Sequence record: MT496971.1
DNA from: Escherichia phage Mt1B1_P10
Direction: 5' to 3' (one strand)
Length of the DNA: 45,359 nt
Below are positions 24,830 through 45,359 of the stretch, piece after piece; the first letter of the stretch is position 1; each line of letters opens with the position of its first letter. The notes below the pieces were generated by a model. The model was not told the DNA's origin, did no database searches, and was given only the letters and a program-made list of their open reading frames with translations. A program made the translations under genes and the position numbers.

Positions 24830-24996
24830 TGGACCACCAGTTGTGCTCTAACACAATCCATAATGTAACGCTTCACTTCATCTACGATTAATTCTTCGTG
24901 AGTCTTAGTCACCTTCGGAGAAGAAGGCTTGAGAATCATCTCAAGCATCTCCATACCCTCAAATGAAATCGTCGGTTTCTTCTTCGTCTGTACCAT
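24826..24996 (-). CDS. Hypothetical small protein (start uncertain)
   Basis: Track start is TTG; first ATG at 24996 has a weak SD; ATGs at 24954 and 24948 are alternatives. Confidence 0.3.
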   Translation of the reverse strand: MVQTKKKPTISFEGMEMLEMILKPSSPKVTKTHEELIVDEVKRYIMDCVRAQLVVQ

Positions 24997-25174
24997 AGAG
25001 TTCTTCAACCTTCTCTTGGATAGCTTCTACAGAAAGACCAAGCTCTTCTGCATCAGCCAGTAAAGTATACGGCAATTCCATACCACAGGATAAAGTTTCA
25101 AAGATAGCTTCTGCTACCTCAACTGCACGAGTTGCCTTCATGCTATCAAAAGAAATCTGGTTCATCTTTGTCAT
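24959..25174 (-). CDS. Hypothetical acidic protein, 71 aa
   Basis: ATG with SD GGGAGA; acidic C-terminus (...EEETDDFI). Confidence 0.45.
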   Translation of the reverse strand: MTKMNQISFDSMKATRAVEVAEAIFETLSCGMELPYTLLADAEELGLSVEAIQEKVEELYGTDEEETDDFI

Positions 25175-26093
25175 GTCTTAATTCTCCCGCTTTGGGCAGA
25201 CGAATGTTGCCCTTGCTTGAATCCTGAAGACCTTTTACTTCAAAGATTTTACCAATGACATTCAATCGTCCACCATGTTTAATATCGTGGAACATCTGTT
25301 CTGCATCTGCATGAGTCCACCCTTTACCTAACATAGCTTTGATTGTCTTGCCTCCTTTCCATTTGAAAATGAGGTTAGCTACCTTACCTTTGTACTTACC
25401 TTTGCCTTCTTCAAAGCCAATACAAGTAAGGTCATAAGTTACCTTACGGACTTCTTTAGTCTGACGATAACCTTTGTGGCCTGCTTCATAATCACAGTCC
25501 AGTTTAAACACAGCACCCTCTCGGCCTGCGTCTATTTGCTCTTGCGCAAACGCTTCAACTTCTCGCTCATTATGGCAAGGAGTAATAGGAAGGATAGCGT
25601 TGTACCCGCTAAGATGAGCGCCGATGCGACGATGTAAAGCATCGTAACGTTTGAGATAAGAAACATCAGTGAATCCATCATGGAATGCCTTAATAGTTAA
25701 CATATCGAAGAAGTCAATATACAGGTTGTCTTTAATCTGCTGGCCTATGAAATCCAGTGGCTCAGTGCGGTTAGGGTTAACTACTCCAGAAAGTGCTTCA
25801 AGGTAGACATCAATAGCCATAGATTGCAACTCACCGAGATAAATGCCAGTAGGGAAAGCTGAATAAGATTCTTCCAAGGTTTCCGTGTTAGCCAGTTTCT
25901 TTCCAGTGCGTCCAAAGACACCAACGACACCATCGTTGCGAACAACCACAGCACTAAATATACCATCTCGTTTTACCTGTGCATAACATGGAAAAGTTAA
26001 TTTCTTCTCAGGTACTTCACCGCGATGTTTCACCAGCATGAATGGGTGATTGCGGTGATCTTCTGGAAGACCTAGGAATTGGAAGATATTCAT
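25146..26093 (-). CDS. ATP-dependent DNA ligase, 315 aa
   Basis: Adenylation motif KRDG (VKRDGIF); ATG with SD AAGGAGG. Confidence 0.8.
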   Translation of the reverse strand: MNIFQFLGLPEDHRNHPFMLVKHRGEVPEKKLTFPCYAQVKRDGIFSAVVVRNDGVVGVFGRTGKKLANTETLEESYSAFPTGIYLGELQSMAIDVYLEALSGVVNPNRTEPLDFIGQQIKDNLYIDFFDMLTIKAFHDGFTDVSYLKRYDALHRRIGAHLSGYNAILPITPCHNEREVEAFAQEQIDAGREGAVFKLDCDYEAGHKGYRQTKEVRKVTYDLTCIGFEEGKGKYKGKVANLIFKWKGGKTIKAMLGKGWTHADAEQMFHDIKHGGRLNVIGKIFEVKGLQDSSKGNIRLPKAGELRHDKDEPDFF

Positions 26094-39354: not shown

Positions 39355-41982
39355 TTATGCGAAGCAATAGTCAGATACTAAGATTTCGTTAAGGTCAAAC
39401 TCTCCTTGCTCTGGCACTTGGATTCCGGTGTCTACTAACCAGCGCTCTTCATGCTCATCTAACAGGCTTTGCAGAGCGTTACGGCCTTGATACATCTTCA
39501 CCATTTCTGCCCTTAGACTATCACGTAGGTCTGCGGTGCGGCCTGCATGAGTACCGAAAGAGTCATGGATAACTGCAATGGAGGTAATACCTTTATCCAC
39601 TAGGTCGCACACCGTTAGAATCAGGTGGCTAGCATCATGGCCGTGCACGAAGTTAGGAGCAGCAGCGCCCATCATAGCCGTTTCATCCACTACGTCCGTT
39701 TCAATCTGTAGACTCATCTTGATTTCTCCCATCAGGCAAGTGGATACGCGGAGCATATCAGTAGCCATAATCTTTTGTTGCAGAATGAAGCCTGTGGGCA
39801 AGGTATACTCTAAGCCTTCATTTCTTTTAGCTGCGAAACGGGCAAGTTGACGAATCATTTTCATTGCCACTATAGGAGCTTTAACCACTTCCGAAATAGA
39901 AGGCCAGATTAAAGCTGTCATATAGTTATAAGCTGCGCTAGGTGTCAGGCTGTCTTTGCGGTCATTATCAAAAGGATGTACAGGATTGGCGGTACGCCCT
40001 TCCGCAATAGCCCGTTGGGCCTCTTTTTCTTCCAAATCAACGATATAATCAATCACTGACTCACGGCAGGTTAGACGTGTGCTGCCGTAAGGTAGTGTCA
40101 TTACGGGCTTTTTGGTCAGGCCGCGAGTGATTCCTATCATATCCCACGCACTAGCCATGCTACGCAGTTCCGCACCTGTTAAAGTCACGCTGCCAGAAGT
40201 GAAGGTTTCCGCATCCTCTGCATTCATGTATGCATAATTCTTCTGAATTACTACCTGCGCAACGGCACCATAAATATCTTGAGGGGAGTCAGAGGGCTTA
40301 AGGTTTACCGCTTTCGCACCTACTGCATCGCGTAGCATAGCACTGTAGTGCTGGATACCAGAACAACTACCATCTTGATGGACGGGGAGGTGCGTCATGA
40401 ATTGGTCTTGCGTGCCTTCATCCAGTGCATCCAGATAACGCGCATATTCAAAGCACCAAGCAAGGAAGCCGTAAGGGGAGTCGGCATTTACCCATTGAGT
40501 GAAAGTAAGCGGATCCGCTGCAATGTCGCGGCACATGTCTTGAAATTCACTATCCAGCACGTTAGCGGTGCGCACGTCAAAAGTCTTCTTATCCCAACCC
40601 CAGTTATTAGCCCCGTTCACCAAAAACCATTTAAGCGCCTCAGCGCTATCAAGGCGCTGCCCTTCGGTAAAACGGAGCAATGCCTTGCCTAAGTCGTTTG
40701 ATTGCGGAGAGAGCGTGCTAGATTGCGCGTAGACGCGGCTGCGGCTGTCCAGTGCATACACGAAGTAGATGGCGTCAAACTGGCTGTATTTACGTGCCTG
40801 CCCGACCATGCGGACGGTCGCCGCCGATTTGCTGCCGCGCTTAGTTTCAGCGGTATACAGCTTGGTACATTCGCCTTTCCAGTTGATGAAGGCTTGCCAT
40901 TGTTCCGGCGTTAGCATCTCTTTAAGTTCACGGCCTCGCAGGTGCTGGAACTCTAACGGCACTGGATTAGCTGGCTTGTTCTCACGGTCGATGAGCGGTT
41001 TAAAGGAAGGCACACCATAGCCGAGGTCTAGACGTATAACGTCCTCCACAACCTGTAAAACCTCTTTATTAACCTGCCACTTAGTTGCCTGCAAAGCGTT
41101 AACAGCCTTATAAACGGCTGGCATTTGCTTTTTGGTCAGCTTGCGGACGTGCTCACGATTGCCTTTTACCAGACGAATACGGCTTGCTACTTTCTCAGTA
41201 TGAAACCCACCGTTAAAAGGTGATACCCAAGGGCGGGGAGGTATAACGCAAGGTGCATAGGCAGGGCTGAGCTGCGCTACATGTTCCTTAAATGCAGTTA
41301 TCCACTCTCCAACATGTTCACTGGTCTGTAAATAGTAAACACCATGCTTTCCGCCGTTAGTGCGCAAGGTACGAAGGAAGACAGGTTGACCATTGAAGAA
41401 TACACTATTCTCCAATATTTCGAGCAAGGTCATACCGATTTGCAGCAAGGTGTCTTTAGGCCATGCCTCCCAACGGGAGAAATCCGCGTCACGGTCAGCA
41501 ACAGATTTCTCAGCTACTACCGCTACGTTGTGCGCATGACGATAAGATTTAGTCTTGCTAGCCTTAAGTGACTTCTTCACTTTCTCAAAGTACTTAGCTG
41601 CGTGACCTTCCAGCTTGCTAAAACGTACTTGGTCTTCGATGCGGTCCGCTACATTCATAGCGATTGCTTGTAAGGTAACGTCTGTATTCAGCATATCCAT
41701 AACGATTTTCATGGTGATATATGCTGCCACTTCGTTTCCTACGCAGTTAATGAAAGCTAATGCACGTGGTGCACGACCTCTCTTGCCTTCGTATTCTTCC
41801 TTGTAAGCCTGAATACCTTCCGCCATAGGTGCGATTAGTTCGGACAATAAGCGGCGATTCCATGCCGTGTCTGATTCATTACCGGATGCAATCTGGCGTT
41901 GTTGGTCCGCTTCAAAGCGACGGATGCCGCCGTTAAACATTTCTTCTTCAAGTTGAAGTTGAATAGCGTGTAGGTCTTGCAT
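39355..41982 (-). CDS. Single-subunit DNA-directed RNA polymerase (SP6-type), 875 aa
   Basis: N-terminus [32 protein letters not shown] matches SP6 RNAP as recalled; catalytic motifs [16 protein letters not shown] and [11 protein letters not shown]; ATG with SD AGGAG. Confidence 0.95.
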
Positions 41983-43179: not shown

Positions 43180-43247
43180 AATCTCAACTCCTAATAAATG
43201 AAAGTTTAATCAGGCGCTACCGTAGTAACGCCTTGTTAAGCCTTCTC

Positions 43248-43265
43248 TTATAGTGTCAGCTAAAT
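43248..43265 (-). promoter_or_regulatory. Phage RNAP promoter, outlier variant
   Basis: Minus-strand ATTTAGCTGACACTATAAGAGAAGG: closer to the canonical SP6 promoter (ATTTAGGTGACACTATAG) than the other copies, with A at +1. Confidence 0.5.
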
Positions 43266-43370: not shown

Positions 43371-43703
43371 TTATTTTTCCTCTTCTTCGTCTTCATACCA
43401 AACTACATCGCTGTCATTTGGTACATCATTATAAAGAGCTTCATAGATGCGAGCTTGAAGAATCATGGTTACATCCTTCGTATCAGGAATCAAACCAGCG
43501 TCTTCAAACTCAACATCAATACCATCCGCAGCCATCACAGTAAAGATTTCGCTGTAATAAACTGGAACATGACTATCTACAACCTCATGCAGTGCATCAG
43601 AGTAATCATCATCTTCACGAATCTCATCGTACTTGATGCGCTCGTTGAATGCTTCAACAGTTGCAGCCAGAAGGTTGTAGTAAGCGTTAGCGTTGCGTTC
43701 CAT
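43371..43703 (-). CDS. ocr: Ocr-like DNA-mimic anti-restriction protein (T7 gp0.3 homolog), 110 aa
   Basis: ERIKYDEIREDDD...VPVYYSEIFTVMAADGIDVEFEDAGLIPDTKDVTMILQARIYEAL parallels T7 Ocr as recalled; highly acidic, ends in EEEEK; ATG with SD GAGGA. Confidence 0.85.
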   Translation of the reverse strand: MERNANAYYNLLAATVEAFNERIKYDEIREDDDYSDALHEVVDSHVPVYYSEIFTVMAADGIDVEFEDAGLIPDTKDVTMILQARIYEALYNDVPNDSDVVWYEDEEEEK

Positions 43704-43852
43704 GATTTAATCCTCATTAGTTAGTTAGGTTACATTATAGGGCACTCAAAAGAATACCCTAGGTTTAACCTATCCAGACTAAGAAGCGACTACCCATATT
43801 GTTAAAGAGCGTGGCTTGTGCCTTGATAGGCTGGCTAGTGCCAGCAACTATC

Positions 43853-44017
43853 TTATAAGATACTATTCACAAGTTTATCTATTTTAGCATTAATTGCAAC
43901 TACTTTACTATAAAGTTTATCGTGCTTGCTCTTGTCTGTGTTAGCTTGCCAAGCGGCATAAGCAACAGCAAGTTTCTCTTGCAATGCATCATAGCGTTTA
44001 CGTTGTGCGTTAGTCAT
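43853..44017 (-). CDS. Hypothetical small early protein, 54 aa (below track cutoff)
   Basis: ATG at 44017 with SD AAAGGTGA; MTNAQRKRYDALQEKLAVAYAAWQANTDKSKHDKLYSKVVAINAKIDKLVNSIL. Confidence 0.4.
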   Translation of the reverse strand: MTNAQRKRYDALQEKLAVAYAAWQANTDKSKHDKLYSKVVAINAKIDKLVNSIL

Positions 44018-44143
44018 GATAGTTCACCTTTGTTAGTAAGCCTATCAAGGCACTAGCCAGATTGTTAAAGAGCGGGATGTTTAAAGACGTCGCCGTCTTG
44101 ATGCTTAATGTAACCTTGTATGCCGTGGTTGTCAATAGTTAAT

Positions 44144-44368
44144 TTAGAGATTTGTCGTGATTACTTCATCGTAATCGTAATCTTCACTGCCTAGATACTC
44201 AGTAATGACTTGGTTGTCATACTCAGATACTAAGGTAACTCGGTGATATTCAGTGTCGTAATCTATCAAATAGTGATACACATCAACGCCTACACCAGCT
44301 TGCATCATATCATCACGGAAGCGAATAGCTTCGCTAGCTGATTCAAAGAATACCTCATGTTGATACAT
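44144..44368 (-). CDS. Hypothetical acidic early protein, 74 aa
   Basis: ATG with SD GAGGGAGGG overlapping the upstream stop; D/E/Y-rich (...EYLGSEDYDYDEVITTNL). Confidence 0.55.
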   Translation of the reverse strand: MYQHEVFFESASEAIRFRDDMMQAGVGVDVYHYLIDYDTEYHRVTLVSEYDNQVITEYLGSEDYDYDEVITTNL

Positions 44369-44547
44369 TATTTACCCTCCCTCAACTCATCTATCATGTT
44401 ACGGTATTGATTAACTGTATCGGTCCAACCTTCGTTAAGAAAGCGGTGATACAAGGCTAACTCATCATCTGTAAGTAATTCATTGTTACGAATCATGTAG
44501 CACAACAGAGTGAAGAGAACGGACAGTTCACGGTTATTTAATGTCAT
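44368..44547 (-). CDS. Hypothetical early protein, first gene of the genome (start uncertain), about 59 aa
   Basis: ATG at 44547 has SD GAGGT; the upstream ATG at 44589 (73 aa) lacks an SD. Confidence 0.45.
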   Translation of the reverse strand: MTLNNRELSVLFTLLCYMIRNNELLTDDELALYHRFLNEGWTDTVNQYRNMIDELREGK

Positions 44548-45092
44548 AGTTAATACCTCATTCAATAAGTAGTTAACCACGGCATACATAGGTTACACTA
44601 AGCAAATTGTTAAAGAGCAATGTAAGCGCTAGTCTCTTCGTATGCCTTACTAGCTGGCTACTAGGTGCCTCAGCACCGCCTACGTGATGCATAGTATTAC
44701 ACTAAGATTATCTTGTCAACACTAAGTTACCATCACTAAGAATAAGATAGGTTGTCTAACGTGTTAGACTAAGGAAAAGCAATAGATACAGAGATAGGAT
44801 AGGCTAGGTTGGCTAGGTTTCTGGTGTTCCTCCTACTGCATCTTATTACTATTACCTACTCTTAGCGGTCTACCGACCGCGACCTAATTGCATCTTATAG
44901 CTTTAGCTATGCAATCACTAAGAGAAGACACTAAGACTTACTAAGGTACACTACTAAGTTGATACTAAGCTAAGCACTAAGGCTTTAACTAAGGTAGCCC
45001 ACTAAGTCTAACCTAAGCCATCCATCAGGATTATACCAAGGATACACAAGCGCGGTGAGTGTAGCGTAACGCAGTGGAGCGAAACGAACAGA

Positions 45093-45359
45093 TAGCCCAC
45101 CCACGCCCACCCTGTCAAACGCTCAGGAATGGCCCTAAAACGGCCTGTGTAAGCCCTAAGCGGTTGCACTAAGGCAATCACCTTGTCCAATACTAAGGCG
45201 TGCCCTAGCGCTTCCTAGGCGTTCTCCTTGTGCAGCCACTAAGAGCAGACCTCGGCAAACCCTAGGCCACCCGTCGAAGACGTACCAGCCCAGCCCAATT
45301 CCCAAGCCAACCGCAGCGCGGCCCCCATATGGGGAAAATCCGGCGAGGGCGAGGGCGAG
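45093..45359. repeat. Direct terminal repeat, copy at window end (genome left end)
   Basis: Identical to bases 1-267. Confidence 0.9.

Follow-up and report, generated by a model that had tools for sequence, protein, structure and literature searches.

Escherichia phage Mt1B1_P10 (sequence record MT496971.1) was analysed as a single stretch of 45,359 nucleotides (nt), hereafter the window, near one end of which an initial annotation had placed an early region encoding a homologue of the anti-restriction protein Ocr and further small acidic proteins, the latter as candidate anti-defence factors beyond Ocr. Here we describe this region, which is assigned on sequence grounds to the class I, first-entering, host-RNA-polymerase-transcribed early operon of a K1-5/K1E-like Vectrevirus. 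The gene set is an ordinary one; gp1, gp2 and gp2.8 are entered as hypothetical proteins in existing GenBank records of K1-5, K1E and SP6. The feature most worth follow-up, beyond the gene list, is the framework in which these genes lie, made up of repeated copies of a boxA of the ribosomal RNA operon (rrn) type and of predicted long-range stems that enclose small open reading frames (ORFs).

Locus and gene order

The last 2.2 kb of the window are 92-97% identical at the nucleotide level to the left ends of the Vectrevirus genomes K1E, K1-5, vB_EcoP_C and the T145P2 group. The minus strand is the coding strand of the early region, the annotated relatives being alike in this, and the GC skew is below zero in all 1-kb windows of the 45.4 kb. 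By these comparisons the window corresponds to a complete K1-5/K1E-like Vectrevirus genome (Autographiviridae, Molineuxvirinae) in reverse orientation. Because both the 92-97% identity and the gene order are shared with K1E, K1-5 and vB_EcoP_C, the region is identified as their class I early operon, in agreement with its earlier description as an early region; in this T7-supergroup phage it is the DNA that enters first.

The operon runs in the order gp1 (59 amino acids, aa), gp2 (74 aa), gp2.8 (54 aa) and Ocr; downstream of these lie gp4, gp5, gp6 and the gene of the phage RNA polymerase (Table 1). The early regions of K1-5 (gp1-gp3), K1E (gp1-gp3, including gp2.5 and gp2.8) and SP6 (gp3-gp5) carry the same genes in the same order, SP6 gp3 belonging to the gp1 family, gp4 to the gp2 family and gp5 being Ocr; K1-5 and K1E differ from the present phage in the cassette content of the slot between gp2 and Ocr.

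The three products named in the initial annotation (Ocr and the 74-aa and 54-aa proteins) were found where it had placed them, all on the minus strand, and much of what it said of them holds. The Ocr homologue is clear, as set out below, and the 54-aa protein between the other two is indeed predicted to be helical. The 74-aa product, gp2, is strongly acidic and rich in Tyr and Asp as described, with an isoelectric point (pI) of 4.05, 17 D+E against 3 K+R, a net charge of -14 and 9 Tyr (12%), and it is joint most acidic, with Ocr and one other ORF, among the 68 coding-strand ORFs of at least 50 aa. The plural in "further small acidic proteins" stands strongly for gp2 and mildly for gp1 (pI 4.7); it fails for the 54-aa gp2.8, which is basic (pI 9.76, net +5).

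Table 1. Positions in the window of the early-region features and of other features mentioned in the text
Feature	Position	Strand	Basis or remark
Sigma-70-like promoter P1 (TTGACA-17-TACTAT)	44691-44719	minus	Consensus match alone
boxA copy 1 (TGCTCTTTAACAAT TT)	44606-44619	minus	16/17 identical to E. coli rrn boxA-spacer
5' arm, gp1-gp2 stem	44574-44604	minus	Inverted repeats I4, I5; directly after boxA copy 1
gp1 (K1-5 numbering; SP6 gp3 family), 59 aa	44368-44547	minus	ATG at 44547, GAGG Shine-Dalgarno
gp2 (K1-5 numbering; SP6 gp4 family), 74 aa	44144-44368	minus	PHROG 6403
3' arm, gp1-gp2 stem (44102-44130)	44102-44135	minus	Inverted repeats I4, I5; overlaps promoter P2
Sigma-70-like promoter P2 (TTGACA-17-TACATT)	44135-44107	minus	Consensus match alone
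boxA copy 2 (CGCTCTTTAACAAT)	44061-44074	minus	In front of gp2.8 cassette
5' arm, gp2.8 stem	44034-44060	minus	Directly after boxA copy 2
gp2.8 (K1E numbering), 54 aa	43853-44017	minus	AlphaFold2 (AF2) helical hairpin
3' arm, gp2.8 stem	43812-43842	minus	Inverted repeats I2, I6
boxA copy 3 (CGCTCTTTAACAAT)	43798-43811	minus	In front of Ocr leader
Ocr leader, long irregular hairpin including the ribosome-binding site	43704-43797	minus	RNA fold and leader alignment
Ocr (K1-5 gp3), 110 aa	43371-43703	minus	Pfam PF08684, PHROG 2568, PDB 1s7z
Hairpin between gp4 and gp5	43180-43256	minus
Phage RNA polymerase gene	39355-41982		Downstream of early block
HNH homing-endonuclease-like ORF, 118 aa	38540-38896	minus	PHROG 59
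Acidic 71-aa protein	24959-25174	minus	PHROG 5860 (function unknown)

boxA copies and predicted long-range stems

The 13-mer GCTCTTTAACAAT, which equals the rrn boxA plus spacer, occurs in three exact copies in the window against 0.09 expected, exclusively on the coding strand and in early intergenic spacers, and one copy heads each early cassette. In E. coli the rrn boxA-spacer is ugcucuuuaacaauuua (PMC2724277), the NusB/NusE-bound boxA being ugcucuuua, and the 13-mer also equals a boxA-like element, GACGCTCTTTAACAATCTGG, of the T7 early leader, the sequence of which is given in PMC11863960. By sequence match, the elements described here are boxA of the rrn type. The Molineuxvirinae early regions that were fetched contain 2-4 copies each, again one per cassette. 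No boxA or RNase III sites described for SP6 or K1-5 were found in the literature search, outside which the original SP6, K1-5 and K1E genome papers lay, and no known RNA family in Rfam matched the early region.

The boxA copies form part of a recurring layout, in which an arm of about 30 nt right after boxA is complementary to a stretch that lies past the ORF stop and before the next boxA or promoter. The predicted duplex of the gp1-gp2 stem has an energy of -48.1 kcal/mol (shuffles -16.0±3.4) and that of the gp2.8 stem -47.2 kcal/mol (shuffles -19.0±3.6); the sequence of the gp1-gp2 3' arm is invariant in K1-5, K1E and vB_EcoP_C. Arms of 26-32 bp pairing at -40 to -53 kcal/mol, against about -17±3.5 for shuffled partners, were found in 30 of 32 distinct cassettes from 19 phage loci, many of which come from close relatives and are not independent. 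In PP1, VLCpiA2a and phD2B the arm sequences differ yet stay complementary within each cassette, and the stems are kept by compensatory change in these three phages and in SP6. RNAalifold predicted 27 pairs from 11 arm pairs, 16 of them with compensatory changes, in hairpin constructs made from arms picked by the duplex search, so that these pair counts are biased towards pairing. A local hairpin around boxA was rejected as the main structure, because each arm covaries with its partner on the other side of the ORF, not with sequence across boxA, as VLCpiA2a shows. The predicted duplexes are plausibly long enough, at about two helical turns or more, for an RNase III leader-trailer helix.

The inverted repeats might instead matter at the level of DNA, for example as recombination sites or as the terminal repeats of mobile mini-elements, with no role in RNA. 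Such an origin would suit the movement of the gp2.8 module between subfamilies with sharp boundaries, the different cassettes found in the same slot of close relatives, and the coincidence of the 3' arm of the first cassette with a promoter-like sequence. Yet the exchanged module is bounded by the boxA copies and not by the arms, arms of unrelated sequence remain complementary, and Pfam and PHROG scans show no transposase or integrase in the region. G-U pairs, moreover, make the sense strand the more stable in 20 of 30 cassettes and the antisense strand in 5, and therefore favour a role in RNA; we regard a purely DNA-level explanation as improbable.

The arrangement is like that of the E. coli rrn leader, in which a 5' strand downstream of boxA (16/17 identical) forms about 30 bp with a 3' strand on the far side of the cargo. 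It differs in that the cargo consists of protein-coding ORFs of 0.2-0.8 kb and not of rRNA, and that no boxB or boxC was identified. With the T7 class I region it shares a host-promoter-driven early operon, the boxA CGCTCTTTAACAATCTGG, present once in the T7 leader, and a homologous hairpin leader before a homologous Ocr, which in both phages is followed by small proteins (genes 0.4-0.7 in T7, where they interfere with the host). The early operon of T7 opens with Ocr and has a single boxA, and its RNase III sites are local hairpins. Here Ocr comes only after two or three other genes, every cassette has its own boxA, and the predicted stems span long distances, with the ORFs inside them.

Promoter-like sequences and proposed early expression

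The sigma-70-like hexamers of P1 and P2 lie 72 and 33 nt upstream of boxA copies 1 and 2, respectively, and are consensus matches not enriched over shuffles, the promoter scan of the region having returned 3 sites against 5.7 expected. boxA copy 3, lacking a promoter of its own, would be transcribed by read-through. In the scheme that we propose, the host polymerase would start at P1 and P2, and each boxA would recruit NusB/NusE, giving a termination-resistant host polymerase that reads on to the phage RNA polymerase gene. The leader-trailer stems of about 30 bp would be cut by RNase III, or would at least hold the ends of the mRNA together, and the outcome would be stable, separately processed early mRNAs. 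The combination of boxA with an RNase III leader-trailer helix has a precedent in rrn (PMC10250234).

The proposed cassette unit would comprise boxA, the 5' stem strand, a ribosome-binding site, one or two small ORFs and the 3' stem strand, and the repeated boxA would serve as crossover points for cassette exchange through short-homology recombination. A bolder version, conceivable but on the whole doubtful, is that Molineuxvirinae early operons are sets of exchangeable cassettes that copy the logic of the rRNA operon, that crossovers at boxA shuttle counter-defence or takeover genes of the gp2.8 kind between Vectrevirus and Przondovirus, that gp2.8 is a new counter-defence cargo and that gp2 is the founder of a family of ferredoxin-like inhibitors. 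The framework suggests how T7-supergroup phages may express and trade early accessory genes, and its signature, a boxA followed by a complementary arm, could become a tool for finding cargo genes in other Autographiviridae.

Early-region proteins

Ocr was identified by a match to Pfam PF08684 ("DNA mimic ocr") of 109.9 bits (cut-off 25, E 9.6e-32) over profile positions 5-97 of 101, by matches to PHROG 2568 ("ocr-like anti-restriction") and to the T7 Ocr structure (PDB 1s7z, E 3e-27), and by 52% identity to T7 gp0.3 over 98 residues. It contains 30 D+E against 7 K+R (net -23, pI 4.05), and its gene, preceded by boxA and a T7-like leader, stands ahead of that of the phage RNA polymerase. Homology thus marks it as a true DNA-mimic anti-restriction protein of the T7 type. 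The leader folds at -55.1 kcal/mol (shuffles -33.8±3.9, z -5.5) and can be aligned with the leaders of T7 gene 0.3, SP6 and K1-5; the RNase III site R0.3 of T7 lies in its gene 0.3 leader.

The likely start of gp1 is at 44547, because a GAGG precedes it and the product then matches K1-5 gp1 and SP6 gp3, its homologue, which starts at the equivalent Met. A 73-aa form with its right edge at 44589 was rejected as over-extended, its first ATG having no Shine-Dalgarno sequence and lying inside the RNA arm; the match to PHROG 9275 covers residues 15-72 of this longer ORF. The stop of gp1 and the start of gp2 overlap (TAATG). Protein clusters of gp1 number 118, all on contigs of Vectrevirus size, and a PDB match to designed PPR repeats was dismissed as compositional. 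Also set aside were a 41-aa ORF starting with TTG at 44010-44135, which has no Shine-Dalgarno sequence, overlies the spacer between promoter and boxA and shows no conservation as a cluster, and an over-long 46-aa form of gp4.

The AF2 model of gp2.8 is a hairpin of two helices (H3-25 and H29-53) with a mean predicted local distance difference test score (pLDDT) of 94; this basic helical hairpin, as modelled, gives no hint of a target. PDB matches to TPR-like and kinesin light chain repeats were dismissed as compositional. The protein is 100% identical to K1E gp2.8 and rare, with only 4 clusters in 5.8 billion proteins and 22 phage records carrying the gene, which only some Vectreviruses have. 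It is found with 92-96% aa identity in Przondovirus K30, a T7-like phage of another subfamily, and in Klebsiella phages; in K30 it opens the gene order and has Ocr as its immediate downstream neighbour, so that in two phage subfamilies the cassette is inserted immediately ahead of the anti-restriction slot. Because the 276-nt module from boxA to boxA (43798-44074) is 94% identical to that of K30 while the flanks are at about 38%, sequence comparison marks gp2.8 as a sporadic accessory cassette that moves horizontally between phage subfamilies. Klebsiella phage P3a was compared alongside K30 for the module shared from boxA to boxA.

The slot between gp2 and Ocr holds gp2.8 alone in the present phage, gp2.5 in addition in K1E and vB_EcoP_C, and nothing in four relatives. 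In K1-5 and several relatives it holds an unrelated, unannotated ORF of 34-36 aa (MKGLICVERMVNGKLEILPLENQSSFKEWYGCFSL) with the same boxA and arms around it.

The 74-aa gp2 is 100% identical to K1-5 gp2 and matches PHROG 6403 (function unknown) at E 2e-29. Its relatives among 5.8 billion proteins form 46 clusters, nearly all of 74 aa, at identities of at least 66% and mostly on contigs close to 44 kb in length; only three further true relatives came from a profile search of 1.84 billion representatives, long multi-stretch matches being set aside as repeat proteins, and IMG/VR held five near-identical loci only. A local hmmsearch extended the family to Pectobacterium phage PP1 gp04 (8e-31), a Klebsiella phage VLCpiA2a protein (5e-17), Lelliottia phD2B gp004 (2e-15) and SP6 gp4 (8e-13), with no match to the T7 early proteins included. 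The hosts thus belong to five genera (Escherichia, Salmonella, Klebsiella, Pectobacterium and Lelliottia). In SP6, PP1, phD2B, VLCpiA2a and a 43.5-kb metagenomic phage, the homologue lies upstream of the anti-restriction slot, which is filled by Ocr in some phages and by an S-adenosylmethionine (SAM) hydrolase in PP1 and phD2B. Because every homologue occupies this early-region position, gp2 is classed by its distribution as a conserved backbone gene of the Molineuxvirinae and not as a variable gene.

Selection on gp2 is purifying, with ratios of nonsynonymous to synonymous substitution rates (dN/dS) of 0.02-0.48 overall, at most 0.15 in residues 43-74 and 0.14-0.45 in the N-terminal half, values that indicate relaxed constraint and no positive selection in the latter. 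The N-terminal half occurs in three divergent allelic types that recombine within the gene, and between codons 1-42 and 43-74 the gene is a mosaic, in which a near-invariant C-terminal half is joined to the divergent types. Recombination within the gene is deduced because the C-terminal halves of gp2 here and in ULINTec6 are identical while the N-terminal half has a synonymous divergence (dS) of 0.72. The residues conserved in the family are M1, H4, F7, L46, L59, I70 and T71; E5 is invariant in the family alignment but is Thr in SP6 gp4.

The predicted fold of gp2 (pLDDT 84, predicted template modelling score (pTM) 0.71) has the order E-H-E-E-H-E, and the model is that of a ferredoxin-like beta-alpha-beta-beta-alpha-beta domain and not of an Ocr-like helical DNA mimic. 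A pattern of D/E plus aromatic residues is kept in the beta2-beta3 hairpin and the alpha2-beta4 loop. The resemblance to ferredoxin-like folds is common to 506 PDB chains. Likeness to CutA, PII-like and ACT domains, which are longer than gp2 and 8-17% identical to it, is at the level of fold and is no evidence of homology, and descent from PII or CutA was rejected accordingly. Also rejected were homology to T7 Gp2 (hhalign probability 0.5%, 11 aligned columns) and a compositional PDB sequence match to fibronectin, which, like the dismissed gp1 and gp2.8 matches, had weak or zero significant stretches.

In Vectrevirus LF31P3 (OZ035776.1, 2561-2935) the gp2 gene reads as an ORF of 124 aa, partly duplicated and with a long run of proline; this form is probably an assembly artefact, because the run of proline codons comes from a homopolymer stretch.

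The net charge of the gp2 family ranges from -14 to -11 in Vectrevirus and from -6 to -9 in SP6, PP1 and metagenomic relatives. Among the distant homologues it is -9 in P0050 (C-terminal domain), -8 in P0054, -7 in SP6 gp4, -6 in P0048 and in PP1 gp04, -3 in phD2B and -2 in VLCpiA2a. Because these distant values reach only -2 to -9, the extreme acidity of gp2 is seen, among these homologues, to be specific to the lineage and not a trait of the family.

Possible functions of gp2 and gp2.8

The explanation that best fits the locus as a whole, which we hold as possible and a little short of probable, is a Vectrevirus class I operon with boxA- and stem-framed expression, in which gp2 would be an inhibitor for host takeover and gp2.8 an accessory cassette. 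On this explanation gp2 would bind, and stoichiometrically inhibit, a host protein that is conserved throughout the Enterobacterales. Its binding surface, placed from the order of secondary structures, may consist of the conserved beta1 and beta4 strands and of the acidic-aromatic loop pole. Host takeover is the most likely role, if a weakly held one, because phages of five host genera carry gp2 in their backbone, because the charge of the protein varies within the family and because its predicted fold does not resemble that of a mimic. For gp2.8, a host- or defence-specific accessory role is suggested because the gene is sporadic and mobile and has a fixed place just upstream of the anti-restriction slot, and it would be a better candidate for such a role than gp2. 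The distribution of the two genes would thus strengthen the positional argument for anti-defence in the case of the mobile gp2.8 cassette and weaken it for the conserved gp2.

Several points count against this explanation. In Pfam, PHROGs and NCBIfam, gp1, gp2 and gp2.8 fall into no family of assigned function, and their homologues have no functional annotation; the step from a conserved gene to a conserved host target is drawn from distribution only, and Ocr, which is also widely conserved, is an anti-defence protein. The generic fold of gp2 would neither support nor exclude any target. On the side of expression, the bias of the RNAalifold constructs, the kinship of many of the cassettes compared and the lack of enrichment in the promoter scan also count against it.

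The initial annotation had read acidity as a sign of DNA mimics or inhibitors of host defence, and on such an account gp2, and perhaps gp1 and gp2.8, would be dedicated anti-defence proteins, gp2 as an acidic mimic of DNA or another nucleic acid that blocks a restriction, BREX-like or DNA-sensing system beyond Ocr. In this phage gp2 is as acidic as Ocr by pI, both lie within 1 kb in the first-entering DNA, and the homologues of gp2 always stand upstream of the anti-restriction slot, be it filled by Ocr or SAM hydrolase; the three shuffled N-terminal types could reflect an arms race, and gp2.8 is mobile and sporadic, as many counter-defence genes are. The mimic idea for gp2 is nevertheless not supported, the charge ranging across the family from -14 to -2. 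Structure prediction, one of the checks that the initial annotation had proposed, gave a compact ferredoxin-like model, and the PDB and viral-structure matches listed for it included neither a known DNA mimic nor a known anti-defence protein. In small size, early expression and strong negative charge, the Vectrevirus gp2 is like Ocr, T7 Gp2, T7 gp5.9, Arn and AcrIIA4; it differs from them in that no sequence or fold match to them was among those listed and in a charge that varies within its family. The variable half is under relaxed constraint and not under positive selection, the gene belongs to the backbone of phages of five host genera, and gp2.8 is basic. No literature support was found, and no fold, family or paper linked gp1, gp2 or gp2.8 to a known anti-defence protein in our searches, which also returned no functional study of the three. 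A dedicated anti-defence role of this kind seems unlikely, though still plausible.

That gp2 acts on the nucleic acids or the expression of the phage itself, for example as an RRM-like RNA-binding protein or as a Nus-factor-binding regulator of early transcripts, would fit its place in a boxA-rich operon and the conservation of F7 (beta1), which is invariant, and Y41 (beta3), which is nearly so. Direct binding to RNA is made unlikely by the net charge of -14, however; matches to uS10 at 10-13% identity are no better than those to hundreds of ferredoxin-like chains, and there is no sequence relation to RNA-binding families in Pfam, PHROGs or NCBIfam, which leaves this a very improbable role. 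It is scarcely credible that the small ORFs are not functional genes at all: they are short and have no family annotation, but gp2 is under purifying selection, length and position are conserved in dozens of phages, Shine-Dalgarno sequences are present and the fold predictions for gp2 and gp2.8 are confident.

A comparison of 20 class II small ORFs with PHROG matched none to a family annotated as T7 gp0.7, Gp2 or gp5.9, a weak check, because about 87% of PHROG families carry no function. On that scan, no homologue of the T7 kinase or of Gp2 seems recognisable in phages like SP6 and K1-5. JSS1_004 was discarded as a lead, being an unrelated kinase of the T7 gp0.7 type. In kinase-bearing Autographiviridae the early proteins are depleted in Ser, Thr and Tyr (2026 study, PMC13645617), and the 12% Tyr of gp2 fits a phage in which the PHROG scan showed no kinase of the T7 type. 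The conserved, first-entering gp2 and the mobile gp2.8 are short candidates for host silencing or for evasion of defences beyond the targets of Ocr, in a group of phages that find therapeutic use against K1 E. coli.

Additional observations

Downstream of Ocr, the hairpin between gp4 and gp5 has a folding energy of -25.9 kcal/mol (z -5.5), and the N terminus of the 61-aa gp5 is hydrophobic and resembles a signal or membrane segment. The HNH homing-endonuclease-like ORF lies between the RNA polymerase and the primase/helicase genes. Outside the early region, the acidic 71-aa protein (pI 4.05, 25% D+E, C-terminal EEETDDFI) could be another inhibitor or mimic candidate; its neighbour at 25146-26093 is presumably an exonuclease gene.

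The hexamer ACTAAG occurs in the window 59 times against 31 expected, and is clustered, on the plus strand only, in 15 copies over 540 nt (44701-45243) and in 6 copies over 400 nt (76-478). These arrays are probably terminal-region repeats beside the genome ends, and the terminus of the window reads GGCGAGGGCGAGGGCGAG.

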